Shown: positions 2,359 to 30,849 of the stretch, one piece after another | Layout: each line of letters begins with the position of its first letter | Numbering within the stretch: position 1 is the first letter of the stretch | DNA from: an uncultured virus (IMG/VR IMGVR_UViG_3300030330_001568) | Taxonomy: Duplodnaviria; Heunggongvirae; Uroviricota; Caudoviricetes; Crassvirales | Direction: 5' to 3' (one strand) | Virus record (IMG/VR): IMGVR_UViG_3300030330_001568 | Length of the DNA stretch: 64,000 bases | Translations under genes and position numbers: made by a program | The notes under the pieces: model-generated | The model's input: the letters and a program-made list of their open reading frames with translations, nothing else | What the model was told of the DNA's origin: nothing | Databases searched by the model: none

Positions 2359-2359
2359 A

Positions 2360-3490: not shown

Positions 3491-3508
3491 GATGGTTTAT
3501 AATGCACT

Positions 3509-3538
3509 GGGGACTTCGGTCCCCTTTGTGTTTGTTTA
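3509..3538 (+). terminator. Intrinsic terminator after rIIB
   Basis: GGGGAC-TTCG-GTCCCC stem with a cUUCGg tetraloop and a T-rich tail. Confidence 0.8.
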
Positions 3539-3559
3539 ATTTAATTATTATATTGTATT

Positions 3560-6814: not shown

Positions 6815-6900
6815 TATAGATAGGTGGGTATTACACTGGTTCTATTGTGGACTAAAATATAGGTCGTCATCCACAATAGTAATGCTCACCTTTATCTATA
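6815..6900. terminator. Long imperfect hairpin filling the gap between the convergent ung and RNAP genes; possible bidirectional terminator or structured RNA
   Basis: TATAGATA/TATCTATA, GGTGGGTATTAC/GTAATGCTCACC (2 G:U pairs on +), TATTGTGGA/TCCACAATA. Confidence 0.55.
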
Positions 6901-12900: not shown

Positions 12901-15900
12901 CAAGCATTTTATTTTGTTCTACTCTAGGATGAGCTACAGCTGCACTTCCATCTTCATCTATTAAGTTTAGCCTTTTCATAGCTTCTGGTAAGTCAAGCTT
13001 ATATGTACTCATCATTAACTTTACAAAAGGAGTCTGACTCCAGAACCTTTTGTATTCTACCAAGTCATTAGGATCTTCTATTACTTTTCCTTCATGGCTT
13101 GCATATCTATGTAAATAAAGTTTATCTAGGTCATAATCAGATCCTGCAAGACCTGGAAGCTCTCTAGGCGTTACAATAGAATCTCCTTTTGAGTCAGGTA
13201 AAAAGCCTACTACTTTTATAGGTATCATAGAATGATACGTTTGTGAAGGTATTCTAGTACCAAAAGCTTGTAATAATCTTTCGTCTGGAACTTCTTCTAT
13301 AGTTTTGTATTTATTTAAACCAAAGAATTTTCTAGATGCTAGTACCTCTGCATATTCTATTTTACCATTTACATTTCTATGTATACGTAAGGGTTGACCG
13401 GTTTGTGGATTAATGTAGTGAGTACCTGAAATTAAAGTTGCAACTCCCCCTACAACTTTAGATTTTAATGGTCCATCATTATGTACATTTACAAGAGCGT
13501 TTTCAACATAAGTTTTTATATTACCTAAACTTAAATTAAACGGTTTAGCAAGAGAAGGATCTAAGAAGCCTAATATTTGTGCTCCTCTATTTCCTTTTTG
13601 TGCATTCATATGTAACAGAGCACGTAATGCTTCTCTGTTTTGTGGATCTAAAAAGGCATTTACAACTGCTTCGTATGCTGCCTTTTGATCTGCGTTAGCC
13701 TGATTTAAATTATCGACCAACGATCTATCTTTTGTAATTACAGAACCAATAAGGTCATGTACCTGTTTTGCCATTACGGACTCATTTACTTGTCCTACTC
13801 TAGATTTAGATCTATTAATAACTTGATCTCTTTCGAATCTTAAGTTACCTGTTCTTATAAGACTAGAGTCTAATTCATTATCTGACTTAAAGAAATCTGC
13901 AGGAAGTGCAGGGAATGGCTTTCTTTTCTGTGAACTTAAAGGAACTAGATACATTATTTTATTAGAGTTAAGAAGATTATATATACGACCTAAGTCTGGA
14001 TTTTCTTCTGCTTCCTCTTTTGTAATTATGTTATCAGACTTTTTGAAATAGTCTTCCATGTTTTCTGATACTGTTTTTGTACTATTAAGATCTAGAGCTC
14101 TTCTTTCTTCGGGTGTTAATTCTATAGAAGGATCATCTAATCTAGCTGCTAGTTTAGTTAGAGCTGAGAATTCTATATCATTTTTATACTTACCTGCTTC
14201 TAGTTGACGTACAGCATACATTTCTTCAGTCATGTGCACTTGAGCATCACTAGTATTACTCTTAGTTCCAAACTCAGTATCTATTATTTCATCTTCTATA
14301 AAGAGATAGTTATAGTCTGATTGACCCATGACATCACCAGCTGCGTTAGGTCCTGCCATTCTTTTATTCATATCTCTGTCGTCTATAAAGTTTGCATCAC
14401 CATGCATTAACTGTGTCCAAGAAACAGACATTATAAAGTGATTAATAGCGAATCTTCCTACTTTATTATTTATAGTACCTTGAAGAGGACTATCAAGTCT
14501 AAGGTCTCTAAGTTGTTCTCTAATATTTAAATTATCTATTCTTTCATTAGTATCAGCTACAACTTGTTCTAACATAGGTTTTATAACCTTTTGTTTTATA
14601 TCAGCAGCTAAGCCATCTAAATTATTTTTTCTACCTCTTAGAAAATCAGGAAGAAGTTGACCTTCATACTCAACATCATTTAATTGTTGTAGTACACCAA
14701 AGTAATTAACTTTATTATTTTTACTTATTAATAGTTCTCCTGTTGCATTTCTATTAACTTCTCTAACAAATATAGAATTGTATACATCGTCTATTGCTTC
14801 TTGTGTTACACCTTCATTATAGTATGTATCTATTACCGGCATTCTTATACCGAACATTGATTTTTTATCTGCAATTACATGTGGTATGTAGTAAGCTGTT
14901 CCAGGTATGTCTCTTTTTTGGAATAATGCAAAGTGTAATAAAAGTCTTTCTCTTTCTACTAAATTTTTGTTTACTTTACCTTTTTTATTTATAACAACAT
15001 CCCCTACATACTGTAGATCTAATGTACTTAGTGCTCCTTTTTTAATTAATAGATTATAGTTACCTGCTTTTATAAAGCTTTTATTTCCTTTTTTTAGAGA
15101 ATTGGTTGCCTCTATGTAATAGTTTCTTTGTGTATACTTATAGTGAGCATTACCGTCAGCGTCTATATAATTAGGTTCATAAACAGTAGGATCAAACATA
15201 GCAGCTATTCGTGCTAGTTTAAACATATTAGTTTTTGTTTTATTTTTTTTGTTAAAATCAGATATATAACCTCTAAAGAATTTTTTAGGATTACTTATTA
15301 ATTCATTAGTTTGTAATTCTGTAAATGCACTTACTACCTGTTCATCTCCTAGTATATAAGCAGCTGCTCCTTTAGTTAACTGCCATCCTAATTTATCAAA
15401 CTCTTTTATTAACTTATCTATCTGAGCAGAAGTCGGATCAGACTCTACGCTTTCTATTAAATTTGCAATATTGTCTATAGCTTTTTTATCTTTTGTGTTT
15501 TTACTTTTCCACATTCTGAATACTTGATTAGCTCCATCATGTTCTAGCGGATCTATAAATATAAATCTACCTTTGTTATCACCAACAAGCTTTAGAAACT
15601 TCATTGGTTCTTTATTAAAGTTACTTTCAAATGCTGTTTTTACATGCTTGTGTGCAGGATCATTTAATGCAGATAGAACTAAAGCTGCTTGTTCATCATA
15701 CTTAGCGAGAGCTTCTAGTCTTCTTTGTAAGTTAACTAAGCTTCCATCATTTGCTAATGCTTTTACTAAGTGAGACGCAAGATTATGTCCGTTTAAAGTT
15801 TTACGTATAGTCTCTGTACCATATTGTTTAGACTGCCATTTAGTTCTACCAAAGTTATCTTTAGCCTCAGAAGTTAGTAATGATATAAATTGTTTTATTC

Positions 15901-18900
15901 TAGAAGATAAAGATTTAACTCCCCCAAGTTCTGTAAAACTTATGTTAAAGTCTGTTCGTCCTTCGTCTAATATATCAAAATCAGTTGCAAGAAAAACAAC
16001 TTGTCTCTTTACTTCATTTATAATATCATCTTTTATTTCTTGATTTGTTTCTAGTTTTAGTTTTGTTAAAAATGCTTGTCTAAATTTACTTTTTATATCA
16101 GCTGCTTCTTCAGCGGTATACTCTTTAGACCCATCCATAAAACTTTGTGGAGTTAGTCCAGCTATGTATGCATCTAATATTTTTTCTATTAGTGCATCTT
16201 CCATAGGTTTATCTATATCTAAAACAGCTAGAGTTTCACTGTAATTATTTGACCCGTATATATACTTAGCAACTATTTGTTTTATAATATCTTTACGTAC
16301 TTCGTTGTTTAGTCTACCTTCTGGTAGTGAGCTCATAAGATCTCCTCCATCTTGACTAAGGTCGTCTAGAAGATCTTCTGCTGATATTTTTTTATTTGTA
16401 TCAGGTTTGTCTTCTAGTTTTACTTCTTCTCTTACAGTAGTTTTTTTCTTTTTTGGTTTTGTTTTTTGTGTTGGTGTTACAGGTTTACCTTTTACTGGAG
16501 TTTCAAAAAACTCATTTTTAGGAGTTATTATCATAGTAGGATTATCAAAATTACTACTAGATGGTTCTAACGTAGTTTCAAAGGAACTAGGATCTACTAC
16601 TACATCCTTACCAGGGAGAGGTATGCTTTGTTTAAAACTATTTACCCCTATAGTAGATAGTCCATATTTTTTCATTACGTTGTTTACAGTCGATATAATA
16701 TTGTCTAAAGATACATCTGGTCTTTGTGTTCTTTTATATAGCTTGTGATACTCTCCATTTCTTCTTTGAGTTATTTCTAACTTAAGTTCGTATTTGTCTG
16801 TTTTTCTATTATAGTCTGCTATTACATGTACCCCTATATCTTTTTCTGCAGCTATAAATAAATCTAGATCTTTATTAATACTCTCTATGTAATCTTTTAA
16901 GTTAACTTCTTCACTTCCTTCTTTCTTAATTTTATTTGCTTTTTCTATTGCAGCTTTTGCACGTTTAAGTCTCTCTTTGATATCTGCACTTGCTAGCTGT
17001 CTAGGATTAACTCTAACCCATTTAGTAGTATTACCTCTCTTTACTAATGCAAAGTATCTACCGTCAAAAGATGGTAGTCGACTTAACTCGTCTTTTGTAA
17101 ATTCTTTTCCTATAATAGCTTTTTGTTCTTGTCTATCATATATTCTATAGTCTCCATCAAAAGTATGATCACCTACAAGTAAGTCTGTAATTAATAATCT
17201 TTTTTTAGTTTTATTACTAACTAGCCCAACTTCAAAACTAATATCAAACTGTGACTCATCAAGAATAATAGGATTTTCTTCAGTAGCATTTTTATATTCT
17301 CCTTCTAAATACTCTATTAGTTGAACTAGCTTAGTGTAGTGCATACCAAACTCTTTCCATTCTTGTTTTGTAAATGGTGTATTTTTATCAAAGTTATCAG
17401 AGAAAAACTGTCTAGTCATTTTGTCTCCAGGTATAAGTTTACCAGACTTATCATAGAATCTACTAGGAGTTCTTATAACTGCTATCACAGTATTATCAGA
17501 TGTATCTACTATTTTTAAGTAAGAGCCATTCATGTTTATATCCATGTTTTCTTCTTTTATAGCAGAGTCTGATAGTTCTCTTTTCTTGTAAACAAATTGT
17601 ATTTGTATTCTATTTATTAAATCTTTATCCTTAAGTATTAAAGCTTCTAATTGATCTCGCTGTTCATCATTTAAACCAACAGCGTGTAGCCAATATGTTT
17701 TTAAGAAATTATCTCTATGTTTTTCTCTACCAAAGTCAGTAACTTTAAGTATTACTTCTTCTTCGGGTACTTTTATATTATTTCCAAGATTGTCTAAAGT
17801 TTCACTAACATACACAACCTTATTATTAATATCTTTCTCTACACTAGCTACTTGATGTAAGTTGCCATCTTTATCTTCTATCATTTTAACTTTAGCACTA
17901 GGTACTATAACATTACTTATAGCTTGACTTTCTAGACCTACTTGCTTTTCAATTCTTTCTGCTTCTTCTTTAGCTTCTCTTTTTCTTTTTTCTTTTATAG
18001 TTTCATTTTTCTTAGGTTGTTCTTTAGGATTAGTAGTTAATGGTTTTTCTTCTTCTGCTCTCTTTTCTTCTGTTGTCTTCATTTCATTATTTACTTTCTC
18101 TACTATACCATCCCAGGTACTAGAATCTGTAAAGTAAGTATCCATCTGCTCATCGAGTTGTTCTATATATTTTTCATATTTTTTTATTTCATCTTCTACT
18201 TGTTGTTTTTGAGCTGCAGTAAGAGCACCTAAAGTTCTTTTCAGTTCGGTATCTCCTAGTATTTTCTTTAGTACGTTTCTTGCTCTTCTTCTATTTGCCG
18301 GTGTGTCATTTACAAGTAAGTCTCTTAAGTATTCTATTCTACTCTGATGTAAGCTTTTTTCTCTAGATAAATGAAAGATAGCATTTCTTACAGTAGAAGG
18401 CATTTTATTTATTTTTGTTTCATCTACTTTTTTTGGATCAGAGTATATATCTAAAAAGTTTTCTAAAACTTTCTTTTGTTCTTTTCGTGCATTTAGTTCT
18501 ATTTTAAGTTGTCTTGTTTTTTTGTTTTTTTCTTTGCTGCTAAGATCAGGATTAGCATTTATTTTAGATATTCTTCTATTCAAAGACTCTATTTGTTTAT
18601 TGTTTTCTTGTTCAGATAATAAGAACTGTCCAACAAGACCTTGATCTTCTATAGATAGATGACTATATCCTACACCATTAGCATTCCATACATTAATTAA
18701 ATCACCTATTCTTTTCTTTAGTTTTTTAGTTTGATACTTACCTAATAAATTCATTCCTCCTAAATGATCTACTTGGTTTAGTAGTTCTTGTCCATTACCT
18801 TCTGCTATCATTCTCATAAGATCTGCCTCGCCTCTAGCATTACTAATAAATCTAGTTGATCCTCCTAGTATAAATCCAATAGCGGCTTCTTCTAATAACT

Positions 18901-20788
18901 TATTTGCATCAAAAGGAGTAGTATTAAACATTCCCATGCCAGGTCTTTTACCATCCTCTCCTGCTATTAAGTTGTTGTAAGTTTTTGTAGCTCCATCTAT
19001 AATAGCACCTTGTATAAATTCTTCGCTTCCTTCTTCAAGTCCAGATCCGGTTGCTCTAGCTGTTCTTGTTAGTAAGTTAGTACCATATTTACCTGCACTT
19101 TTAACTCCTACGCTTTCTAAATATCTAAAAGGTGAGTTAAGAAAATCGTCTCCTTTTTGTAAAAACTTATTAATTTTTTGTAGTATATAAGGAGTAGCTT
19201 GATCTAAGGTTTGTTTGGTATTCATCTTCATACCTCCTCTTTTACCAAAGTCTAGTATAGCTTTAGTCATAGCTCTTGTGCCGTATGTACCGAATGCTCT
19301 ATTAGCTAATGCATTTGTTCCTACACCATACTCTACTAAGGTATTTATAAATCCTACAGTAAGTGCTAGTCCTGCAGCATCGTCATCATCTAACCCATCC
19401 ATTTTAGCCATTGAGTATACTTCTCCAGCATTTAACGGCATACCTCCCGACATATGACCAATCATACTTACCGCTCTTCTAGGAAACTTAGTAAGCATTT
19501 TTTTAGTAACTAGTTTTACAGCTCCTTTTACTCCTGCTGCTCCTACTCCACCTAACCCCCAAAAAGATAACAAAGAAGCAAGACCACTACCTAATCCATT
19601 TCCAAAAGAATCTCCACTAGAAAACAGAGAGTCTGTCTGTTGCATTGCTGTTTTTGCATACTTATTAAAGTTGTAAGCAGTTCTAGCAGAAGCTGCAAGT
19701 CTATCAGTAAAACCATCAGGATTTAGATCTGAGTCCACACCATCAAAAGCATCTCCAACTATTTCTCCAAAGTTTACAAGGCTTTCCCATGTGCTACCTA
19801 AACCTTCACTAAACCCATCTACAAAAGAATGTAATGTACCTTTTTGTACTTGACCTACTCCATAAGGACTAAGTAATGCACCTCTTAGGTTCATAAACTC
19901 CTCTTCAGATAAGCTCGATTCTTGTAGATACCATTGTTGTTCATCTTCATCATATACTGGATAGTATCCTTTTTCTTTAAAAAAGTACGATGATATATCC
20001 ATTCCTTTAAAAGGTCTAAACATATTTTCTTTAGACTCTTGAGCTCTATTTTCTATTCTTTGTAACTGACCTTTGTACTCTTCATTATTTTCTAAAAACT
20101 TTATAAGCTCAGGACTTTGGCGATCTCCAAATACACTTTCTCTAATAAAGTCTTCATACCCGTAAGTACGTTTAAATAGTTTTCCATCATTGTCTTCTCC
20201 CCATATTCTTTCAAACCAATTAGCATTGTCAAATCTATATCCACTTTCTGGGTCACTAAAGTCAACTTTAGTTCCATCTTCTAGAATAACTCTACCTGAT
20301 CTACCTGCTTCTACCCCTTTTCTTTTTGCTATTGTAGCAGCTGGATTAAAATCACTTCTACCTGACCCTCCTGCAAGAAATGTAGTATTAGGTTTATTTA
20401 ATATTATAGTATCTGGAGCCCATACAGGAGGTGTAATCATTTCATCCGGTGTAATAGGAATTAAAGGAGGTGTGTATTCGAAGTCCACTTCTTCTAATGA
20501 ATAGGTAGGTGTATATTGTTCCATTCCAACCTGAATAGGATCTCCTCGTCTATCATTCATACCAGGAGTATAATCCGGATTGTCCTTCATTTTATCTAAA
20601 CTAAAACGAGAAAAAGGATCATTCTCTCTAGGAGCATAATTAGATATAAGATTACTACTTACAATAGGAAGCTTCTCAGTAACAGGAATAGTGTTTTTAT
20701 TATCTGCAGGAGGATTAAAGTTTTGAAGTTTTTCTAGTAGTTGTCCTCCACCCTGTAATTTTTTACCTTGTGTTTTCTTAGTTGACAT
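6896..20788 (-). CDS. Giant (4630 aa) virion-packaged RNA polymerase polyprotein of crAss-like type
   Basis: RIPSQ...GSDYDLDK (DxDxD, ~13121-13144) as in two-barrel crAss-like RNAPs; zincin-like EEAIH (~11219-11233); hydrophobic helices near both ends; last gene of the structural arm. Confidence 0.85.
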   Translation of the reverse strand: MSTKKTQGKKLQGGGQLLEKLQNFNPPADNKNTIPVTEKLPIVSSNLISNYAPRENDPFSRFSLDKMKDNPDYTPGMNDRRGDPIQVGMEQYTPTYSLEEVDFEYTPPLIPITPDEMITPPVWAPDTIILNKPNTTFLAGGSGRSDFNPAATIAKRKGVEAGRSGRVILEDGTKVDFSDPESGYRFDNANWFERIWGEDNDGKLFKRTYGYEDFIRESVFGDRQSPELIKFLENNEEYKGQLQRIENRAQESKENMFRPFKGMDISSYFFKEKGYYPVYDEDEQQWYLQESSLSEEEFMNLRGALLSPYGVGQVQKGTLHSFVDGFSEGLGSTWESLVNFGEIVGDAFDGVDSDLNPDGFTDRLAASARTAYNFNKYAKTAMQQTDSLFSSGDSFGNGLGSGLASLLSFWGLGGVGAAGVKGAVKLVTKKMLTKFPRRAVSMIGHMSGGMPLNAGEVYSMAKMDGLDDDDAAGLALTVGFINTLVEYGVGTNALANRAFGTYGTRAMTKAILDFGKRGGMKMNTKQTLDQATPYILQKINKFLQKGDDFLNSPFRYLESVGVKSAGKYGTNLLTRTARATGSGLEEGSEEFIQGAIIDGATKTYNNLIAGEDGKRPGMGMFNTTPFDANKLLEEAAIGFILGGSTRFISNARGEADLMRMIAEGNGQELLNQVDHLGGMNLLGKYQTKKLKKRIGDLINVWNANGVGYSHLSIEDQGLVGQFLLSEQENNKQIESLNRRISKINANPDLSSKEKNKKTRQLKIELNARKEQKKVLENFLDIYSDPKKVDETKINKMPSTVRNAIFHLSREKSLHQSRIEYLRDLLVNDTPANRRRARNVLKKILGDTELKRTLGALTAAQKQQVEDEIKKYEKYIEQLDEQMDTYFTDSSTWDGIVEKVNNEMKTTEEKRAEEEKPLTTNPKEQPKKNETIKEKRKREAKEEAERIEKQVGLESQAISNVIVPSAKVKMIEDKDGNLHQVASVEKDINNKVVYVSETLDNLGNNIKVPEEEVILKVTDFGREKHRDNFLKTYWLHAVGLNDEQRDQLEALILKDKDLINRIQIQFVYKKRELSDSAIKEENMDINMNGSYLKIVDTSDNTVIAVIRTPSRFYDKSGKLIPGDKMTRQFFSDNFDKNTPFTKQEWKEFGMHYTKLVQLIEYLEGEYKNATEENPIILDESQFDISFEVGLVSNKTKKRLLITDLLVGDHTFDGDYRIYDRQEQKAIIGKEFTKDELSRLPSFDGRYFALVKRGNTTKWVRVNPRQLASADIKERLKRAKAAIEKANKIKKEGSEEVNLKDYIESINKDLDLFIAAEKDIGVHVIADYNRKTDKYELKLEITQRRNGEYHKLYKRTQRPDVSLDNIISTVNNVMKKYGLSTIGVNSFKQSIPLPGKDVVVDPSSFETTLEPSSSNFDNPTMIITPKNEFFETPVKGKPVTPTQKTKPKKKKTTVREEVKLEDKPDTNKKISAEDLLDDLSQDGGDLMSSLPEGRLNNEVRKDIIKQIVAKYIYGSNNYSETLAVLDIDKPMEDALIEKILDAYIAGLTPQSFMDGSKEYTAEEAADIKSKFRQAFLTKLKLETNQEIKDDIINEVKRQVVFLATDFDILDEGRTDFNISFTELGGVKSLSSRIKQFISLLTSEAKDNFGRTKWQSKQYGTETIRKTLNGHNLASHLVKALANDGSLVNLQRRLEALAKYDEQAALVLSALNDPAHKHVKTAFESNFNKEPMKFLKLVGDNKGRFIFIDPLEHDGANQVFRMWKSKNTKDKKAIDNIANLIESVESDPTSAQIDKLIKEFDKLGWQLTKGAAAYILGDEQVVSAFTELQTNELISNPKKFFRGYISDFNKKNKTKTNMFKLARIAAMFDPTVYEPNYIDADGNAHYKYTQRNYYIEATNSLKKGNKSFIKAGNYNLLIKKGALSTLDLQYVGDVVINKKGKVNKNLVERERLLLHFALFQKRDIPGTAYYIPHVIADKKSMFGIRMPVIDTYYNEGVTQEAIDDVYNSIFVREVNRNATGELLISKNNKVNYFGVLQQLNDVEYEGQLLPDFLRGRKNNLDGLAADIKQKVIKPMLEQVVADTNERIDNLNIREQLRDLRLDSPLQGTINNKVGRFAINHFIMSVSWTQLMHGDANFIDDRDMNKRMAGPNAAGDVMGQSDYNYLFIEDEIIDTEFGTKSNTSDAQVHMTEEMYAVRQLEAGKYKNDIEFSALTKLAARLDDPSIELTPEERRALDLNSTKTVSENMEDYFKKSDNIITKEEAEENPDLGRIYNLLNSNKIMYLVPLSSQKRKPFPALPADFFKSDNELDSSLIRTGNLRFERDQVINRSKSRVGQVNESVMAKQVHDLIGSVITKDRSLVDNLNQANADQKAAYEAVVNAFLDPQNREALRALLHMNAQKGNRGAQILGFLDPSLAKPFNLSLGNIKTYVENALVNVHNDGPLKSKVVGGVATLISGTHYINPQTGQPLRIHRNVNGKIEYAEVLASRKFFGLNKYKTIEEVPDERLLQAFGTRIPSQTYHSMIPIKVVGFLPDSKGDSIVTPRELPGLAGSDYDLDKLYLHRYASHEGKVIEDPNDLVEYKRFWSQTPFVKLMMSTYKLDLPEAMKRLNLIDEDGSAAVAHPRVEQNKMLDNMLQVFNDPEVQEVMFIPASEGEADSFLEKYPNLDKLKPIHTVVGVLDYHTQNKLGATNVGIAANLNTLVSFMTQFAPDTSTVGININDEYFGSFGRIVDPTGKNKFDSISTLITWFVDNVKLGVAPRLNLDPDMSQTFGHLVGMAVSQMEALMLVNQPILRLYNELKESDTKLNVAKSRQEAAKRRGEIRQMLVQKIRAVSNNKGAPFTTESLDSGLTYETDIKTLLNLGLPNQVLKLELNEEDNVFLGTQLKALEFVDEVVRKYETEYGDMIQFMTTTRGLKGIDALRNMKISDPLLVHPVFQNNARIIKNMTQSIGSMLLTNSEVADAFISVYGKTTPKEMQEVLARIQQLKADPKFRSNIALHNLLRIERDENGKLTLLADSFTEMSPEIEGEMLGMFEDLFEDNPGLADQLLKYLFGTSVLEYKANSFVKYLPPSIFRKWSDALDSYERTPQRRKVADNEYKKLKRKAKVYAGETEEGLEMTVPTDREQLEDGIYTIDKMSEELDVDDGFKNLLDKLQKQGVQVEYTRGGANYYSNNKIYLGKLDQNTFLEEAIHAGLDILPKDQKNKLRKDVLSWYKQLIKDHAGKNEIQTIQRIFNRYNNFYKNEEKAAEEIVTHLLYNEYGIAQDLNNLRSPDAQEGGILKRMWNKFIQILSKYLGIEVKEGSELEKLSSLMQPVNRLLQDSEVEYSNERSSDQLFSMPHGKLFDNLTIKGVTPDTMAKINTEGSGTVIMFDGLKMPIEQSIVNLSRGGKYGAKVYIKKKVPIRNFAVLNRVTKEKYAKDLGFDNFADLKKKAKGRLLEFVNGRREGMILQVEQFLPKELEELIKMNSVDPYHNVVNNILIKLYKQLKDLQQVKNIEFATNRSNRIKKIINQIEQTRDLFTSVADFHDDVMTQSKLFDDFLETIPKILEKGPKGLQEVINVLFRMQTLYQDMSFLEELPDVFVEKIKDPNYKPPNDVLKKLQEAAQTLDLMKQKTRRQFIPIVAEKLFPFIERSGPATKAYVDQRLKITADQIETVRNSDLTPEKKNKKIIELNKEFNRLTRLAEQAPQSVQQYKDFFMYTTHDDSFINYLLTSPATSGDPGVAALVNYTNALYNDIRMQALEIANELERAEELVIQGLEEAGTPPQKTKGVYNPKTLYDALIQRVSHNGRDVMQLVTQYDSERFERELKEQEEKLIKTQEDFLRFKAQLEKRRKKTLETYKKKLDSFNRLDDELKTAVIQQQISELEASISRVQTQIQQGATEKEVIRFATRTWRAVNTVPKDVREIQAIIKRLPPAEVRSWASNQMNYAAMYYHNIISADEYTLLQDIDKASGIKPTQDRAYFGYQVTIPKFINPKWRKLYKRVKRKGPDGQTIEVEVPKNKLGQAHEIFTRIYKDALATTGVQQTVNMQLPSLRRGTLDRILDYGVWSEIKEQASRLFTIDEDDAFVYGSAVIEGQSSRRAPVYFTQEIDADDVSLDIKSSLMIFANAAARTEANNEVLKTAYLLEDIYKRERVADPEESSSIGLAKIGRKIMNFRPGQSNSEKRIEKFIEMVLLGQTKKSDQVEIFGKTLQFDKVVDGLLGYTAITTLGLDFLKGTRNALTAFWQQAIESGANRANKDRLSTNDFIAGHRIMRQGWYELYKDKYERLGNRSKLGQLLIKFDAIQGNFEDFVGKQLVGRQALRAFISTDSFLLNYHVGEVQMQGAAAIGLMLKKKIKLGNNEYNLYNAFFVNKENKLEYVEGTPEQKKEADKIVRDTINEIREMNRRLNGNYRSMDRPPAEQSSIGRAAMLFRKFLVPIAMNRWRADFVNHESGRPDGGFYRRFFRDFINNLKTSVEKNAFSKIMDAGKRATATKEDRELAFKLLHEVITLNILGFLGFMLTQALDDDDEDFINYPAYLALYLIKTTYAEIQAFSPFIGPLPINFSGMFREGLRVVRSPSAMTTGIDRFIKLNAQMFDPFEEYQRDAGQYKKGDSKLKARFLEVLGYSSGLQFNPDAALDNFLAANKRL

Positions 20789-24371: not shown

Positions 24372-26882
24372 TTATATATATTTTAAGTAGTCGTCAACAT
24401 TAGTTTTTAATCTATCAGAGAATACAAATCCTGCGTCCAATGCTTGATTAGTTTGTGAACCAAAACCGGTGTTTCCTCCTTTTACTCCTATACCTCCCGA
24501 AGGTGCATCATGAGTATCTCCTACAAATTTAAACATATTTGGTCCAATTTTACGAACTTCTCCGTTTTCATCTGTTTGTGGAGGATTATTTGCAGGTCCC
24601 ATCATTAGTTCTCCTCCTTCTACAGTGTAATCAGGTGCTTTCATCATTCCACCATCTTCTGCGTAGTAACTATAATTATCTACGCCCTCAGTTGGATATT
24701 GACTTAACACACTAGCTGCATTAACTTGATCTTGTGCAGACATTGCTGCTAATCTATTATTTAATGCTTCTTCTTTTTGTCTTTTTAGTTTTGCTAATAG
24801 TTTTTTATGTTGGCTTTTTCCTAGTAATCCACCGCCTATAGCTCCTAACACTCCTCCAACTATTCCTCCTATAGGACCTAGTGCCATTCCCATAGATGCT
24901 CCTTGTCCTGCCATGCCTATAGCTCCAGCTGTTCCTGCTTCACCTTCTGATATTTCTGTAGGATCAGATGGAAGACTAGCATTATATAAACCAGCTCCTA
25001 AAGATCCTAGTTGTGCGAATGGTATTTTGCTCATAGCTTTACCGAATCCGGTATTTGCACCCATAAAGCCCATTCCTTTTTCTGCTTCGTCTGCTGTTCC
25101 TTGAGTTGTTCCACCAGGTGCCATTTTTTTCTTAGGTAGTGTTTTTATTTTACCGTTGTGTGTTCTTGCAAATCTAGCTTTATCTGTTTCCATACTTGGT
25201 ATAAGAGTACCACTATATTTTTTACCTCCAAACATCCAACTTACACTTCCTCCTTTACCCATACCTACTCCTTGTAAAGGTGTTGTTTGCATTTCTGTAC
25301 TTGCACTAAGCACAGGTTGTATACCTTCACCTGTTAATGTACTAACAGCTGTTGGTCTAAACCTTCCTGTGTCTAACATTTCTTGATATCTAGCTAGTTC
25401 GTTATTAAGGTTTTGCATATCACCTGTATATCTAGTTACTCTATATCCGCTTTCAGGATCAGCAAAATTATAATCTACACCTCTTGAAGATATTCCTTTT
25501 CTAAAACTTCCTCCCATATTTTCCATTATTATAGGTCTTCCTTGATCGTCATATTGTCCAGAGAATATTTGTGTGTGTTGTCCTCCTTCAGGTCCACCAG
25601 TGCTGTAGTTACTTACAATTCTATCTCCGGGTTGTAAGTCTTCGTATGACTGTGGATTAATAACTTCAAATCCCATAGCTGCAGGATCTTGTTCTATCAT
25701 AGAATTCATCATAGCATTACCTGCAAAAATAGGCAGTTTACTACCTGCACTATATACACGATCGCTTCCTGGCATTTGAACATCTCCTGGTAAAGTAGCT
25801 CCTGCTTCTCTCATCATTCCACAGCCGTAGCTTGTACAACCATAAGAATTTTTATTTTGCTCTGCTAAAGAGTTTAAATAACCATAAGTATTACCTATAA
25901 CTTGAGTTGAGTCTATACTTTTTTGATTTTTTGGATCTGCATTTCTTTCTTCTGCTGTAGCATAGTTAGGTAGTTGACCTTGTATATTTTGTTGAAATTG
26001 TGCTAGTCTTTCTTGTTCTGCAGCTCTGGCTTCATTTATTCTTTCCATCTCTGCAGCTATTTGTTCTCTAGACATAAGCATACCTCCACCTTGTAATTCA
26101 TTTTTATTATACTTTTCAAAGTATACTTCTAAATCCGGCTTACCTTTTTTCTTAGAAGGAAACCTTATTATGTTTTTTATATCAAAGTTCTGTGGTAAAT
26201 AAGGTATTGTACCTGTAAAGTTTCCATCTTCATCAAGTCTTTTAGCTACTCTGGCTTTTAGTACTTCATCCGATACCATAAATTCTTTGTTAGGACCATA
26301 TCCAAAGAATGCTGTATCAGGAAGTTTAATATTATACTGTTCAGCAAACTGATCATAGGTAGGTAGATCAGGATAAAGTTTTTCTAGTTTTTTATTATTA
26401 AGTATACTACCTCCTCCTTGATAAGATGTATTTGCTTTTAATGATTTATTAACACCTTTAGATACTGCTTTCGCAGTTGTTGGACTAATTCCTACTGCTT
26501 TTAATGGTCTTACAAAAGGTAATACACTTGCAAAATTCATTGCTGATTTACCTGCATCTCCGTCCATAAGAGACTCCGTACCTTTTATTAGAGCACTTGG
26601 TACATTAACCATACTTGCAGCAAAGTCCATAGGCTGACTTGGAACTTGACCTGCTTCTACACCTTTATCAAAGTTATAAGGTATTTCACCTTGCTGTAAA
26701 AATGTTCTTGCTGATTGAAAAGGATATTTAACAATAGAACGAACATCACTAACCAAGTTATCTAAAAAGCCAGGAGCTTGTGAGATAGTAGCAGGGGTAG
26801 GTGGAGGCGGCATCATAGGAGGTAACTGCGCCCCATTTTGATACTTTTTCGGATTATATGTATATTCTTTTTTTATTTTCAT
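24372..26882 (-). CDS. Putative cargo protein with NlpC/P60-CHAP-like domain and glycine-zipper membrane segment
   Basis: YGCTSYGC ... LQPGDRIV ... GQHTQIF; GMALGPIGGIVGGVLGAIGGGLLG; C-terminal VEGGE..GDTHD..GG..VFSDRL. Confidence 0.6.
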   Translation of the reverse strand: MKIKKEYTYNPKKYQNGAQLPPMMPPPPTPATISQAPGFLDNLVSDVRSIVKYPFQSARTFLQQGEIPYNFDKGVEAGQVPSQPMDFAASMVNVPSALIKGTESLMDGDAGKSAMNFASVLPFVRPLKAVGISPTTAKAVSKGVNKSLKANTSYQGGGSILNNKKLEKLYPDLPTYDQFAEQYNIKLPDTAFFGYGPNKEFMVSDEVLKARVAKRLDEDGNFTGTIPYLPQNFDIKNIIRFPSKKKGKPDLEVYFEKYNKNELQGGGMLMSREQIAAEMERINEARAAEQERLAQFQQNIQGQLPNYATAEERNADPKNQKSIDSTQVIGNTYGYLNSLAEQNKNSYGCTSYGCGMMREAGATLPGDVQMPGSDRVYSAGSKLPIFAGNAMMNSMIEQDPAAMGFEVINPQSYEDLQPGDRIVSNYSTGGPEGGQHTQIFSGQYDDQGRPIIMENMGGSFRKGISSRGVDYNFADPESGYRVTRYTGDMQNLNNELARYQEMLDTGRFRPTAVSTLTGEGIQPVLSASTEMQTTPLQGVGMGKGGSVSWMFGGKKYSGTLIPSMETDKARFARTHNGKIKTLPKKKMAPGGTTQGTADEAEKGMGFMGANTGFGKAMSKIPFAQLGSLGAGLYNASLPSDPTEISEGEAGTAGAIGMAGQGASMGMALGPIGGIVGGVLGAIGGGLLGKSQHKKLLAKLKRQKEEALNNRLAAMSAQDQVNAASVLSQYPTEGVDNYSYYAEDGGMMKAPDYTVEGGELMMGPANNPPQTDENGEVRKIGPNMFKFVGDTHDAPSGGIGVKGGNTGFGSQTNQALDAGFVFSDRLKTNVDDYLKYI

Positions 26883-27349
26883 TATTTACCATTCTTGATA
26901 GTTTGAAACTTTTCTGCCCCACGACTTCCAAAGTAGGCTACGTAGACGGTTACAAGAAGTGTCTGCAATAAATCTACCCAACCAGCTGATACTTGAAAGC
27001 TCCATTCAAAACTGTCTAGTAATATTAATAATACCATAGATATAGTTAAGAAGATCAAACTTATAGGTCTAGTATTCTTACTTAACCACGAGTCTGATTT
27101 CATATCGCTTTCCCATCGTTTTGAGACTTCTTGCATCTCAACCATATCTTGTTCTAAAAGCTTTAGTGCTTTTTCCTTGTCTTCTGGAGGGAGTGTAGCA
27201 TCCGGTTCTTTCTTTATAAGATTTTTTACTAAGCCTAATACACCTGCGTCAGGTAGTACATCTCCTGCTATACCTAATATACCAGGAGCAGCCTTAGATA
27301 AGAATGCTCCTACCTTAGTTTCAGAAAACTTCTTTTTTGGTTTTCCCAT
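26882..27349 (-). CDS. Putative holin (3TM / gene-transfer-agent-like family)
   Basis: RWESDMKSDSWLSKNTRP, then two hydrophobic helices and AYFGSRGAEK. Confidence 0.7.
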   Translation of the reverse strand: MGKPKKKFSETKVGAFLSKAAPGILGIAGDVLPDAGVLGLVKNLIKKEPDATLPPEDKEKALKLLEQDMVEMQEVSKRWESDMKSDSWLSKNTRPISLIFLTISMVLLILLDSFEWSFQVSAGWVDLLQTLLVTVYVAYFGSRGAEKFQTIKNGK

Positions 27350-27352
27350 AAT

Positions 27353-27439
27353 TTATTTCTTTTTTTTCTTAGTGGTTTTTTTCTTTTTTTTAGGAGGTCT
27401 TCCCATTTTAGACCCGTATGTTCCTTTACCTTTAGGCAT
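27353..27439 (-). CDS. 28-aa basic micro-protein MPKGKGTYGSKMGRPPKKKKKTTKKKKK (not in ORF track)
   Basis: Hand-translated ATG 27439 to TAA 27353; fits tightly between neighbours; GRP AT-hook-like core. Confidence 0.75.
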   Translation of the reverse strand: MPKGKGTYGSKMGRPPKKKKKTTKKKKK

Positions 27440-27457
27440 AATTATTTATTTAAGTGT

Positions 27458-27742
27458 TTAACATTTCCACCTACGTCTAGCTTGTCTTATTCTAGAGTTC
27501 GGATTATTTCTAGTTTTTGCACTAGACCTCTTAAGTTGTCCTAAGCTTCTAGCACAGTATGACTTTCGTCTTTTAGCAGCTTTGCTACCTTTTTTAACTT
27601 TACCGGTAACAGCTGTCTTAAGTTTAGATCCAGGGTTAGCACGCCTGTAAGCTCTAACTCCTTTACGAGTCATGCCTGCTCCAGACTTAGTTTTACGGTA
27701 GTTACCGCCTTTGCCTGTAGTACGTCTAATCGCCTTTGCCAT
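27458..27742 (-). CDS. Small basic protein (94 aa)
   Basis: GMTRKGVRAYRRANPGSKLKTAVT...AKRRKSYCARS...RQARRRWKC, a pattern I recall from aquatic phages. Confidence 0.8.
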   Translation of the reverse strand: MAKAIRRTTGKGGNYRKTKSGAGMTRKGVRAYRRANPGSKLKTAVTGKVKKGSKAAKRRKSYCARSLGQLKRSSAKTRNNPNSRIRQARRRWKC

Positions 27743-27744
27743 AA

Positions 27745-27912
27745 TTATTTCTTTTTACGTTTCTTAGCAGTCTTCTTAGCTCTCCTAAAGTTTGCAGCTG
27801 TAGGAGCTCCTTTAGATCCTGGCTTTCTCATTTTCTCACCAGAGCCTGCTTTGATACGTCTTCTTTTAGCGTGGATATTTGCGTATAATCCTTTTTTCTT
27901 TTTTTTTGCCAT
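27745..27912 (-). CDS. 55-aa basic protein MAKKKKKGLYANIHAKRRRIKAGSGEKMRKPGSKGAPTAANFRRAKKTAKKRKKK (not in ORF track)
   Basis: Hand-translated; 2-5 nt spacing to neighbours. Confidence 0.8.
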   Translation of the reverse strand: MAKKKKKGLYANIHAKRRRIKAGSGEKMRKPGSKGAPTAANFRRAKKTAKKRKKK

Positions 27913-27917
27913 AATAA

Positions 27918-28043
27918 TTACATTTTACATCCGTCCTTACGGAATTTTTTTAAACTTAACATACCACCATATGCGTAAGAATAAGTTTTTCTCTTTCTCT
28001 TACGTTTTGTAGATCCACCTTTTTTCATGCATCCACATCCCAT
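27918..28043 (-). CDS. 41-aa basic protein MGCGCMKKGGSTKRKRKRKTYSYAYGGMLSLKKFRKDGCKM (not in ORF track)
   Basis: Hand-translated; tight packing; two phi-x-x-GG motifs. Confidence 0.7.
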   Translation of the reverse strand: MGCGCMKKGGSTKRKRKRKTYSYAYGGMLSLKKFRKDGCKM

Positions 28044-28045
28044 GG

Positions 28046-28198
28046 TTATACTTTTCTTTTTTTGATGTTCATAGCAGCTAACATTCCGCCACCCATCTTA
28101 CTTATTTTTTTATCTAACATGCCACCTATTGCATACATGCCTGGATTTGCTGGTCTCATTTTACCACCGCCTCCATATTTCATTTTTTTATTTCCCAT
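28046..28198 (-). CDS. 50-aa Met/Gly/Lys-rich protein MGNKKMKYGGGGKMRPANPGMYAIGGMLDKKISKMGGGMLAAMNIKKRKV (not in ORF track)
   Basis: Hand-translated; tight packing; GG motifs. Confidence 0.7.
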   Translation of the reverse strand: MGNKKMKYGGGGKMRPANPGMYAIGGMLDKKISKMGGGMLAAMNIKKRKV

Positions 28199-28224
28199 TT
28201 TGAAAATATTATATAGTTACACAA

Positions 28225-28398
28225 TTATTTACCAACTTTCTTCATCGCCATTTTATGCGATTTACCGAACGTTGCGCCTTTTTTCATAGCAGTAACCATA
28301 CTTCTTATATGCTTTACTGTATGATGTTTAGAATGCCTTTTAAGAGCATTCTGTTGTCTTTTATTTAGACTATCTACGTTTACGCCTTTTACTTTCAT
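28225..28398 (-). CDS. 57-aa His/Lys-rich protein (…LKRHSKHHTVKHIRSM…GKSHKMAMKKVGK) (not in ORF track)
   Basis: Hand-translated ATG 28398 to TAA 28225; five His residues. Confidence 0.75.
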   Translation of the reverse strand: MKVKGVNVDSLNKRQQNALKRHSKHHTVKHIRSMVTAMKKGATFGKSHKMAMKKVGK

Positions 28399-28399
28399 A

Positions 28400-28564
28400 T
28401 TAATGCCATCTAAGTGTTATTGCAATTATAATAAAATAAATATTTAGTTCATACCAATCTTCGTCTGCATACTCAGGTATTCTATCATCTTTACTAAAAT
28501 AAGTAAATCCTAATAAAGCACCGTCTCCTAGAAGACGAATATGAATTAAACTAAATAAATTCAT
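28400..28564 (-). CDS. 54-aa hydrophobic small protein (MNLFSLIHIRLLGDG…YELNIYFIIIAITLRWH) (not in ORF track)
   Basis: Start overlaps the upstream stop (TAATG); stop lies 1 nt before the next ATG. Confidence 0.7.
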   Translation of the reverse strand: MNLFSLIHIRLLGDGALLGFTYFSKDDRIPEYADEDWYELNIYFIIIAITLRWH

Positions 28565-28782
28565 TATTTTTTTCTTTTTCTTCCTTTTCTTTTTTTACCT
28601 TTTACTGCTGCTCCTACATCACCAAGTTGATTACCAACTTCTTTCATAGCACTACCTACATCAGATAGTTCTTGACCTACATTTTTAGCACGTCTTTTAA
28701 CTTCTTTTACTGTTGCTATGGCTTTCTCGTCAACTGTGGTTTTGCTCCATAACTTAGTCCACCATCTTTTTAATATATTCAT
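28564..28782 (-). CDS. Small protein with amphipathic helix and basic tail (72 aa)
   Basis: Internal repeat VG..L.DVG.A.K; KRKGRKRKK tail. Confidence 0.7.
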   Translation of the reverse strand: MNILKRWWTKLWSKTTVDEKAIATVKEVKRRAKNVGQELSDVGSAMKEVGNQLGDVGAAVKGKKRKGRKRKK

Positions 28783-28786
28783 ATCT

Positions 28787-29197
28787 TTAAAATTGTCCCG
28801 CTTGTGCGGCTTGGTCTACTGCTTCTTGTATATCAGCTAAATCTGCAGGTAGCAGTAGATCTAAACCTGCCTTGAAAGCTGTTTCTTTTATACCGTCATA
28901 AAATATAATAACGGTAGGTGCCATACGCACCTTGTATTTCTTTTTCGCATTAGGTGCTTTTGATATATCTATTCTATAGTATAAAGCATTTTCTACTTTA
29001 TCCCATTCTGCAAAGCAGTTTTCTTTATTAAATTCTGCCCAGAACTCTACTACTATAGGTTGTAGGTTATCATCTCCAAATGCGGATCTTTGATTTATTG
29101 TTTCTTCAAAGTTGCTATCATCAATCCAATACTCTTCTGGTACATCGCTTTGTGCAAAGGTATAGAAGCTTATTAGTAATAGTATTATGTGTTTCAT
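28787..29197 (-). CDS. Secreted thioredoxin-fold protein lacking CxxC
   Basis: Signal peptide MKHIILLLISFYTFA|Q; IVVEFWAEFNKENC, YRIDI, KKYKVRMAPTVIIFYDG match Trx topology. Confidence 0.7.
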   Translation of the reverse strand: MKHIILLLISFYTFAQSDVPEEYWIDDSNFEETINQRSAFGDDNLQPIVVEFWAEFNKENCFAEWDKVENALYYRIDISKAPNAKKKYKVRMAPTVIIFYDGIKETAFKAGLDLLLPADLADIQEAVDQAAQAGQF

Positions 29198-29514
29198 CTT
29201 TGTTTCTGTATTTCGTATAGCCTTTCGTCTATCTTATCTAATTTTTCTTTTATATCTTCAACATCATCTTGTGTATCTAATATTGTAGATCTAATTAATT
29301 CGTCTTTTAAATCATACTCAGTTCTAGATATTTCTGGTTTAGGCAACTCTTTAGCTTCAGCTATATCTGCCTGTAGTGTAAACCACATACCAGCTAATGC
29401 CACAATACCAGCTATTAAGCCTCCTATTGTTTTAAGTGATATAGCAAAATCTGATTTACCATCTCCATCTATATCTATACCCATAGATGTATTTTCGTCT
29501 AATTGTCGTGCCAT
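29194..29514 (-). CDS. Single-TM protein with C-terminal coiled coil
   Basis: DIDGDGKSD loop; TM segment IGGLIAGIVALAGMWFTL; heptads DDVEDIKEKLDKIDERLYE. Confidence 0.65.
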   Translation of the reverse strand: MARQLDENTSMGIDIDGDGKSDFAISLKTIGGLIAGIVALAGMWFTLQADIAEAKELPKPEISRTEYDLKDELIRSTILDTQDDVEDIKEKLDKIDERLYEIQKQR

Positions 29515-29525
29515 AACTTTCTCAT

Positions 29526-29582
29526 TTAATCACCACATAAACCACAGCCTATGCAGAACGGACATATAAAATTTGTTTTCAT
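29526..29582 (-). CDS. 18-aa Cys-rich micropeptide MKTNFICPFCIGCGLCGD (not in ORF track)
   Basis: ATG 1 nt after the upstream stop (TAA-T-ATG); fills most of the 69-nt gap; CxxCxxCxxC. Confidence 0.65.
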   Translation of the reverse strand: MKTNFICPFCIGCGLCGD

Positions 29583-29583
29583 A

Positions 29584-30849
29584 TTATCTAAATGTATAAT
29601 TAATTCCAAAGGTTGAGTTAAAAAATTCAGTATCCCACATTTTAGTATATTCTCCTTCTACAAATACCCCAAGCGTCTTACTAATTTTCCATCCCATGTT
29701 TAGACCCCCTTGGTAGTCTAACCATTGTTCAAATTCGTTTTCATCTCCTGTTACAGGATCGTACTTCCATCCATTTCTATATCCATAGTTTAGTTCATCC
29801 CACTCTCTATCATTAAATATATATTTATGATAAGGAAGTAGTACACTAGCGTATGCATGTATCCAGAAACTAGACTTATAATGATAGAAATCCATACCTA
29901 CAATAGGTGATACAACATGATAAGGTTCTACAGTTTCCCAAAACTCTCTGTTATATCTATTCATGAGTTTTCTAAATACAGTATTTCTAAACTGTAAATC
30001 TGTATATGCAACTATGTTTCCCTGATCATCTCTCCATAACCAGTCTCCCATTTGTTCAACTGTACCATCATTATTGTAGACAACAGATGAGTAGTATACG
30101 TCTTCGTATCCGTATTGATATCCAAGACTGTACCAAGGATTTGCAGGGTATTGATTACCAAACTCATCTGTTTCCATTTGGTTTAACCAAAGCTCTATTG
30201 GATTAAATCCATAACCACGTTGATGAGTACGGTAGATTGCGCCAGCTGAAATAGAAGCTTTGCTACCTAGTGGTAGTCTAAATCTAAGCTCTGCTGATTT
30301 ATATTCGAAGTCTCTTGATCCTATATTTCTTTGCTCTAGCTTAGCAATATGATATTTACCAGTGTGTCTAATAAAGAATCTAGAGTTGTTCCAAACCATT
30401 CCTCTATGTCTTTCCTTTTCATAGTGTAGTAAGTATTCTAAACCGTCAACTGCAGAAGTAGGAGCAGATAATGCATTTTGTTTTTCTCTTTTTACATTAC
30501 CAGTCCAGAAGTTATCCGGCTTTCTCTCGTATCCAAAACGACCAAGCTTACGGATTCCAAATCCATATCTATAATCAAAAGGATGTTTGATAGTTACATC
30601 TATTACTTCTGGTACATCATATAAACTTCCACCTTCTGGAGGTCTAACAAAAAAAGACTCTTGCTCTACTTGAGCATTGTTAATATCTCCAGCTACGTAA
30701 ATAGTTCCGTATTTAAAGATCTGTTCGTATATAGATTTGAAAATGTTCTTCTTTTCTTTTTCTACTTGACCGTAGGTTACAAAAGAACATAATAAGAATA
30801 TTAAGGTAAAGATGTAAGTACCTCTTTTATAAGTATAAGAATCTCTCAT
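29584..30849 (-). CDS. Putative outer-membrane beta-barrel protein
   Basis: Signal peptide ...IFLLCSFVTYG|Q; aromatic-rich alternating strands; C-terminal GVFVEGEY...STFGINYTFR beta-signal-like end. Confidence 0.7.
   Translation of the reverse strand: MRDSYTYKRGTYIFTLIFLLCSFVTYGQVEKEKKNIFKSIYEQIFKYGTIYVAGDINNAQVEQESFFVRPPEGGSLYDVPEVIDVTIKHPFDYRYGFGIRKLGRFGYERKPDNFWTGNVKREKQNALSAPTSAVDGLEYLLHYEKERHRGMVWNNSRFFIRHTGKYHIAKLEQRNIGSRDFEYKSAELRFRLPLGSKASISAGAIYRTHQRGYGFNPIELWLNQMETDEFGNQYPANPWYSLGYQYGYEDVYYSSVVYNNDGTVEQMGDWLWRDDQGNIVAYTDLQFRNTVFRKLMNRYNREFWETVEPYHVVSPIVGMDFYHYKSSFWIHAYASVLLPYHKYIFNDREWDELNYGYRNGWKYDPVTGDENEFEQWLDYQGGLNMGWKISKTLGVFVEGEYTKMWDTEFFNSTFGINYTFR

Follow-up and report, generated by a model that had tools for sequence, protein, structure and literature searches.

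A conserved 18-codon, four-cysteine open reading frame in the lysis-gene neighbourhood of a marine crAss-like phage

Genomic setting

The window considered here is a 64,000-nucleotide stretch of DNA from an uncultured virus of the Crassvirales (IMG/VR record IMGVR_UViG_3300030330_001568). The window codes for a capsid protein of Crassvirus type, for crAss tail-ring proteins 1 and 2 and for a portal protein, together with three giant proteins and proteins like rIIA and rIIB. The capsid protein is 33–35% identical to the capsids of gut crAss-like phages. It alone was matched in an annotated phage collection, in which the window DNA and the barrel and thioredoxin-fold proteins described below found no match. 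Window DNA recurs in marine metagenome runs from several studies. The rIIA- and rIIB-like genes of this crAss-like phage genome lie on the plus strand at 55–3490 (PHROG E 4e-71 and 5e-36). A 4630-aa open reading frame (ORF) on the minus strand (6896–20788) has no Pfam or PHROG match at the thresholds used, and the adjoining ORFs of 644, 540 and 836 aa are likewise unmatched. Reassignment of a stop codon is known for some crAss-like phages. It is not at play here, since the long ORFs are intact in the standard code and TAA ends 23 of the 24 distinct DNAs of the micro-ORF family introduced below.

The feature of interest is an 18-codon ORF on the minus strand (29526..29582; ATG 29582..29580, TAA 29528..29526). 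Its hydrophobic product carries cysteines at residues 7, 10, 13 and 16. A first-pass annotation, made from the letters alone, had placed this ORF one nucleotide past the stop of a barrel gene and had remarked on four cysteines at three-residue spacing in an otherwise AT-rich genome. Both points are borne out: the translation is as claimed, the strand can now be added and the GC content of the window is 33.6%.

All genes around the micro-ORF are on the minus strand. Upstream lies the gene of a 421-aa exported protein (29584..30849; TAA 29586..29584). The AF2 model of this protein (mean pLDDT 70.4) consists mostly of long antiparallel strands, and its top Foldseek matches in the PDB are all outer-membrane barrels, at weak scores (E 3e-5 to 1e-3, TM 0.2–0.46). 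No Pfam or PHROG family matches it. The model thus points to a fold like that of outer-membrane beta-barrels, and the protein is called the barrel here. A single base (29583..29583; T in the window, C in the related loci L002 and L030) separates the barrel stop from the ATG of the micro-ORF, a gap that suits termination–reinitiation. On the other side, an 11-nt spacer (29515..29525) leads from the micro-ORF stop to the ATG of a 106-aa protein (29194..29514), which has one hydrophobic segment and a coiled-coil-looking C-terminal part. No family scores above cut-off for this protein; its gene follows the barrel gene in nearly all related loci.

Next in the operon is a 136-aa thioredoxin-fold protein (28787..29197), which matches Pfam Thioredoxin at E 1.5e-5 (25.4 bits; cut-off 23.5). 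It has a signal-like N-terminus, no CxxC and one cysteine, residue 61. At the position of the WCGPC site, homologues have instead a conserved FWA-x-FN-x-x-N-[C/A]-F stretch; among 117 distinct homologues, residue 61 is Cys in 73, Ala in 40, Ser in 3 and Lys in 1. The 73 with the single cysteine all fall in or near the clade that carries micro-ORFs. Both features are limited to this one clade, so their association is inseparable from shared descent. As the annotation had stated, the micro-peptide itself lacks a signal peptide. The accompanying suggestion that it might supply thiols to the thioredoxin-fold protein is unsupported: that protein has a signal peptide and the micro-peptide has none.

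Farther downstream are genes for a small basic protein of 72 aa (28564..28782, minus) and a holin-like protein of 155 aa (26882..27349, minus; phrog_3427 holin, E 2.3e-20). The latter marks a lysis-gene neighbourhood. In relatives, the block of barrel, 106-aa and thioredoxin-fold genes adjoins Peptidase_M15_3 or amidase endolysins and a holin. Seven tiny, very basic ORFs rich in Lys, Arg and Gly (28–94 aa) occupy 27353–28398 on the minus strand. One of the run, 27458..27742, matches DUF6321, and another, a 41-aa ORF at 27918..28043, begins Met-Gly-Cys-Gly-Cys.

The micro-ORF is locally rare. It is the only CxxCxxCxxC among the 596 ATG-initiated ORFs of 10–60 aa on both strands of the window, and this pattern occurs once in all six frames, in which CxxCxxC runs total 18. 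Rarity in the window alone is not decisive, because a scan of many windows would yield chance cases; the question of chance or gene is settled by the comparative evidence below. Several other readings of the stretch were discarded. An RNA element or terminator is out: the stretch shows no RNA structure beyond that of its shuffles (fold z = +1.32; 188 of 200 shuffles give a fold as good or better). Extension of the upstream gene by read-through or frameshift is out as well; micro-ORFs always have their own ATG and occur in all three phases, starting 1, 2, 3, 4, 6 or 11 nt past the preceding stop in the window and its relatives. Beyond the TAA of the window ORF, the frame runs to a stop eight codons on and differs from that of the next gene. 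A lipoprotein signal with Cys13 lipid-modified was rejected by eye, the hydrophobic segment being too short and relatives beginning Met-Cys.

Conservation in the window's own lineage

Bait searches with the barrel protein yielded 26 viral loci and 73 from metagenomes; six of the latter lack the barrel 3′ end and were left out. The micro-ORF follows the barrel gene in two of the 26 viral loci and in four of the remaining 67 metagenome loci (L029, L030, L031 and L033). These carriers of the window type have barrel proteins 89–100% identical to that of the window. It is missing from L032 and L066 (barrels 91–93% identical) and from all more distant loci, in which the next gene starts between 1 nt inside the barrel stop and 20 nt past it. 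Nucleotide identity of L032 and L066 to the window falls from about 89% in the barrel gene to about 73% right after its stop: a recombination joint lies exactly at the barrel gene border, where the micro-ORF is present or absent. Within metagenome run X11, a related phage without the micro-ORF has a joint that skips 76 nt of the window (29506–29583), with nine other letters between. The same run holds a carrier, so carriers and non-carriers co-occur in one sample. A degenerate DNA pattern of the peptide core matched only the window's own two viral contigs.

The annotation had proposed that conservation of frame and cysteines in related phages be looked for. Frame, ATG, stop and four cysteines are kept in every copy of the window type. 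The micro-ORFs of the window and of L031/L033 differ at four positions, all synonymous (4 of 10.3 synonymous sites, 0 of 43.7 non-synonymous sites); over the same comparison the neighbouring genes have pS of 0.37–0.68 and pN of 0.012–0.08. A fifth change, likewise synonymous, falls at Cys16 in a 5.8-kb contig of run X11. With every kind of change given equal weight, an outcome of five synonymous changes in five has a probability of 2.2e-4; with transitions alone it is 2.3e-3. Either of the other two frames, both of which are interrupted by stops, would make one of the five synonymous and four non-synonymous. Evidence for selection in the window's own lineage rests on this small number of five substitutions.

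The adjacent 11-nt spacer differs from L031 at 5 of 11 bases, compared with 4 of 54 in the micro-ORF, and on this comparison evolves much faster. Low divergence is no argument by itself: along the pair of window and L031 it is mosaic, with no differences at all in the final 54 nt of the barrel gene and four or fewer in 34% of all 54-nt windows. The argument that the ORF is unusually conserved and hence constrained was dropped for this reason. In a metatranscriptome (X18), a 218-nt contig covers 29423..29637 with five other letters; it is a hint that the micro-ORF stretch is transcribed and is indistinguishable from DNA carry-over. Parts of the window not covered by a contig of an RNA library carry no information.

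A family of free-standing four-cysteine micro-genes

Use of the thioredoxin-fold protein as a second bait added 80 loci; the family analysis covered 181 related loci and 831,792 nt. Micro-ORFs were termed free-standing if no ORF of at least 50 aa overlaps them, and were analysed apart because many of the look-alikes found at these loci are not genes. The 181 loci hold 24 distinct free-standing DNAs, the window micro-ORF included, which encode 19 distinct four-cysteine peptides of 11–18 residues. Two positions are used. In four loci (L147 type), a 12-codon ORF lies in the same slot as in the window, between the barrel gene and the next gene. In other relatives, ORFs of 11–14 codons begin 1–11 nt past the stop of the thioredoxin-fold gene, and a gene of the 72-aa basic type is the commonest directly after them. 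The thioredoxin-fold 3′ end with at least 80 nt beyond it is available in 163 loci; these represent 119 distinct contexts, of which 29 have a micro-ORF.

The strongest single result is a homologue of the window ORF in L149, because one core is kept at two genomic positions while the flanking genes have diverged far. This 14-codon ORF lies behind the thioredoxin-fold gene. Of its 10 core residues, 9 are those of the window peptide, and 80% of the core bases agree; all but one of the six base differences are synonymous (Fisher p = 2.4e-4). Saturation of synonymous sites is seen in phages with this homologue (pS 0.8–1.0; pN 0.04–0.12). Among ORFs of the L149 type (L136, L142, L145, L149, L156 and L159), pS is 0.63–1.06 and pN 0.04–0.13. 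Eight phylogenetically separate pairs, pooled, give a pS of 0.269 and a pN of 0.046, a ratio of 0.17 (Fisher p = 1.9e-6). Constraint is weak in one comparison, L159 with L156, where one synonymous and four non-synonymous changes are seen. Taken over the family, the substitution patterns show purifying selection on the peptide sequence and above all on its four cysteines. Core cysteines are never replaced; their codons alternate, with 60 TGT and 38 TGC.

The four cysteines (five in two peptides) are the only invariant feature. CxxCxxC occurs in 13 of the 19 peptides and CxxCxxxC in the other six; successive core cysteines have one to three residues between them, or none in the two five-cysteine peptides. 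Cysteine makes up 22–42% of the residues, from 4 of 18 in the window peptide to 5 of 12 in relatives. Some members have as few as 11 residues, some begin Met-Cys, and their character varies from hydrophobic to charged. The 19 peptides have no leader or signal segment in common, and the variation in length, charge and hydrophobicity argues against a membrane helix or export signal.

The distribution of cysteine numbers is uneven. Intergenic small ORFs on the gene strand with 0, 1, 2, 3, 4 and 5 cysteines number 235, 78, 26, 5, 24 and 2; on the opposite strand, those with 0, 1, 2, 3 and 4 number 216, 63, 25, 3 and 1. None of the five gene-strand ORFs with three cysteines is family-like. The family is thus all-or-none, without three-cysteine decay forms. 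A cruder control counts every ATG-initiated ORF of 8–25 aa with at least four cysteines in the 181 loci, 43 distinct on the gene strand versus 3 on the opposite one; it overstates the case because overlapped forms and nested starts are included.

On a quick tree, micro-ORFs are confined to one clade that comprises 67 of 117 distinct thioredoxin-fold proteins and are found with none of the other 50. Presence inside the clade is patchy, with 13 changes needed on the tree, and the gene is therefore dispensable. The groups of the family may have separate origins, and the likeness between them may hence be partly convergence. On the comparisons above, the window ORF is very probably a real protein-coding gene, and the four-cysteine peptides are among the smallest phage genes.

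The slot after the thioredoxin-fold gene is a hot spot for small cysteine-bearing genes. Seven loci (L011, L012, L014, L015, L056, L062 and L095) have there a 35-aa, zinc-ribbon-like mini-protein with four cysteines. A second thioredoxin with canonical WCGPC and no signal peptide is encoded in this slot in some relatives, as in L003, L034, L035 and, at about 3490–3750, L041. Other relatives have a lipoprotein of 177–188 aa after the thioredoxin-fold gene; basic mini-genes similar to those of the window follow it in L106 and L141.

Out-of-frame look-alikes and the origin of the family

A further 15 distinct look-alike DNAs are not free-standing: they lie out of frame over the signal-peptide part of a barrel gene or of a gene for a small exported protein or lipoprotein (loci include L107, L108, L111, L117, L124, L139, L166, L141 and L106). 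A 'YfiM-like' label for the small exported protein was given up, as Pfam offered no supporting match. A codon ending in T, followed by an Ala or Val codon, reads as Cys one base on. Synonymous randomisation of the signal-peptide code with the phages' own codon usage gives an open frame with at least four cysteines in 11–62% of draws. The two changes between L107 and L108 leave the signal peptide as it is but alter residues in the cysteine frame. The randomisation and the L107/L108 pattern together indicate that cysteine-rich micro-ORFs arise here without selection. The window ORF is not a by-product of this kind: no ORF of at least 50 aa overlaps it, and both other frames have stops.

These look-alikes, arising by chance over such code, make it probable that the family was born from signal-peptide code. 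Two sets of loci bear on this. The overlapped ORF of L104 is homologous in its DNA to the free-standing L006 type as far as the start of the mature part of the exported protein. In L117, the look-alike over the signal peptide of the small exported protein resembles the window peptide, its N-terminal part included. The simplest reading, which infers direction from these comparisons, is that free-standing forms trace back to signal-peptide code whose gene or frame was lost, and that the forms with four cysteines were retained. The position of micro-ORFs behind the thioredoxin-fold gene would likewise reflect descent from the signal-peptide code of the following gene in relatives.

Birth of viral genes by overprinting or frame shift of existing coding sequence is described in PMC8227390. 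The present case is like the examples given there in that a new peptide comes from an alternative frame, and overlapped and free-standing stages are found side by side. It differs from that account in three respects: the source is solely the signal-peptide part, the product has only 11–18 residues, and the overlapped stage needs no selection.

Relation to known cysteine-rich peptides

The first-pass annotation had described the peptide as having a ferredoxin-like cysteine motif. In one respect this is correct: CIGCGLC, a CxxCxxC, is present at residues 10–16 and corresponds to the usual first three ligands of a cluster (PMC10946529, PMC3320576). The likeness stops there. The full motif is CxxCxxCxxxCP, and the window peptide ends two residues past CxxCxxC, without CxxxCP, second motif or ferredoxin fold; its fourth cysteine comes two residues before the triad. 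No significant match was obtained. The best three of six sequence matches in the PDB are 4Fe-4S proteins aligned on their first cluster motif, at E of about 0.9–1.5, and the 27-aa extended ORF hits no Pfam family at E up to 10. Such matches do not show the window peptide to belong to the ferredoxin family. Cluster binding is put forward as a hypothesis, prompted by the motif. PHROG and Pfam scans of the window found no gene for iron–sulfur assembly, a radical-SAM enzyme or peptide modification, and none was found in the nearest record, G001, which is 73% complete and has 43% of sampled words in common with the window.

Ferredoxin maquettes, synthetic 16-mers with CxxCxxC and a fourth cysteine, assemble [4Fe4S] clusters, as reported in PMC10946529; the window peptide has 18 residues and four cysteines. 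The same report calls the cysteine spacing of maquettes immutable for cluster formation. On that account a family-wide [4Fe-4S] role is argued against, since 6 of 19 members have CxxCxxxC.

The C(P)XCG zinc-finger micro-proteins of Haloferax volcanii have fewer than 70 aa and two C(P)XCG or C(P)XCG-like motifs (PMC11241148). Some members bind zinc and some do not, according to PMC11241148 and PMC10716476. They resemble the phage peptides in being tiny and one-domain, mostly unannotated and recognisable only by two cysteine pairs, often CPxC and CxxCG (PMC11241148). In the window peptide one such motif is exact (CGLCG) and one is C(P)XCG-like (CPFC, with I instead of G as fifth residue); other family members have CxC or CC instead of a second motif. 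The haloarchaeal motifs, as described in PMC11241148, sit in a folded zinc-ribbon-like domain, whereas the phage peptides have 11–18 residues in total. With only two residues between its cysteine pairs, the window peptide is unlikely to adopt a zinc-ribbon fold. The sources also differ, a haloarchaeon and a phage of a marine bacterium, and homology between the two groups is not shown.

Metallothioneins offer another comparison. The smallest fungal copper thioneins have about 25 residues, and we know of no metallothionein as short as these phage peptides. The two are alike in small size, in a high share of cysteine in CxC, CxxC and CC motifs, and in the conservation of nothing else. Unlike metallothioneins, the phage peptides have only four cysteines and contain aromatic residues, and their genes lie in a phage lysis-gene neighbourhood without a metal-responsive regulator.

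Competing explanations

Four other accounts of the micro-ORF have to be weighed. The most serious takes it for a functionless relic: the frame-shifted, signal-peptide-coding 5′ end left by an exported-protein gene once present between the barrel and 106-aa genes and since deleted. Several observations speak for it, namely the ease with which out-of-frame signal-peptide code yields open frames with at least four cysteines (11–62% of randomisations), the 15 overlapped ORFs, the resemblance of L117 to the window peptide, the shared DNA of L104 and the L006 type up to the mature part of the exported protein, and patchy presence. A relic should, however, change at all sites, and here five of five changes are synonymous (P 2e-4 to 2e-3) and the pooled pN/pS is 0.17. 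Between the window and L149 types, almost all synonymous sites have changed, yet only one of ten core residues has. Forms with three cysteines, a lost ATG or an inner stop are missing, and the neighbouring 11-nt spacer has changed at 5 of 11 bases. The relic account is therefore considered unlikely. Pure chance, an ORF that happens to lie in a short intergenic insert, fares worst of all. Some four-cysteine ATG-ORFs are expected when very many windows are scanned, and the six frames of this one hold 18 CxxCxxC runs; yet the ORF recurs in independent contigs with silent changes only, and intergenic ORFs with at least four cysteines number 26 on the gene strand against 1 on the opposite strand. 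This possibility can practically be set aside.

The annotation had also raised the idea of a coupling peptide. In its sequence-indifferent form, translation would merely carry ribosomes from the barrel stop to the next start, so that openness of the frame is selected and its residues are not. The gaps of 1 nt upstream and 11 nt downstream suit such a role, as do micro-ORFs that begin 1–11 nt past the stop of the thioredoxin-fold gene and the generally close spacing of genes in the operon. Tight coupling is indeed the rule here: where relatives lack the ORF, its two flanking genes are never more than 20 nt apart and may even overlap. A spacer of this sort forbids only stops, so that replacements should outnumber silent changes by about 4:1; none is seen among five, and the pooled ratio is 0.17. 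The four cysteines are invariant although only one in nine single changes of a Cys codon makes a stop. In addition, the ORF is cleanly deleted from near relatives of carriers (L155 next to L149, and L032 and L066 next to the window type), which indicates that the operon works without it. The substitution pattern thus rejects the spacer idea, which has a slim chance at best. Slimmer still is the chance of a precursor or exported peptide, whether RiPP core, lipopeptide or signal-like peptide, that would act together with the barrel and thioredoxin-fold proteins outside the cytoplasm. In its favour, the window peptide is hydrophobic and is encoded among genes for exported proteins, and bacteriocin loci are known in which a cysteine-rich peptide is paired with a thioredoxin-fold protein. 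Against this stand the scans of the window and of G001, which found no modifying enzyme, radical-SAM gene or transporter. A RiPP precursor has a leader and a core beside a modifying enzyme; the family has members down to 11 residues, Met-Cys starts and no conserved leader or signal. The thioredoxin fold, moreover, lacks CxxC, and its single cysteine is Ala in 40 of 117 homologues.

Proposed role and significance

The explanation preferred here, and held to be more likely than not, is that the ORF is a micro-gene of a marine crAss-like phage whose translated product acts in the cytoplasm as a four-thiolate binder of a metal or cluster, encoded in a lysis-gene neighbourhood. The following course of events is proposed. 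(i) Ribosomes that end the barrel gene would restart at the ATG one base on and make the 18-residue peptide, as the spacing suggests. (ii) They would then stop 11 nt ahead of the start of the 106-aa gene. (iii) The peptide, having no export signal, would stay in the cytoplasm. (iv) Its four thiolates, held by selection in a gene of the envelope and lysis block, could provide the ligand set for a metal centre. For the CxxCxxCxxC subgroup, an iron–sulfur cluster of the ferredoxin-maquette kind is the best sequence-based guess; a single Zn/Fe(Cys)4 site or Cu(I) thiolate binding appears about as likely. (v) The phage might benefit through metal supply, redox sensing or the timing of lysis. As to origin, the set would arise from out-of-frame signal-peptide code: AT-rich genomes would give open cysteine-rich frames as a by-product, and some of these may have been kept after the host gene was lost or its frame shifted. 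A bolder version sees in the family natural ferredoxin maquettes: unmodified, ribosomally made peptides of 11–18 residues whose four cysteines carry an iron–sulfur or other metal–thiolate centre, which arose de novo from out-of-frame signal-peptide code and which serve the phage late in infection, perhaps by sensing or perturbing the redox or metal state of the host as lysis is timed. This version is offered tentatively, as a possibility of some but not great likelihood.

Genes this short sit below every gene caller, and a large survey of bacterial intergenic small ORFs set its floor at 15 codons, as described in PMC11188072. Searches of the literature returned no report of micro-genes with four cysteines, whether in crAss-like phages or in any others. 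The look-alikes also set a trap for such searches: cysteine-rich micro-ORFs over signal-peptide code in AT-rich genomes are expected by-products, not genes. If the peptides are made and bind metal, they would push down the lower size limit for metal-binding gene products in nature, provide a testable case of gene birth from signal-peptide code, and add a new player to the poorly understood lysis and envelope block in phages of marine Bacteroidota-like hosts. Should the maquette version be true, no metalloprotein genes smaller than these would be known, and they would be a living instance of a metal-binding peptide that arose from unrelated sequence.
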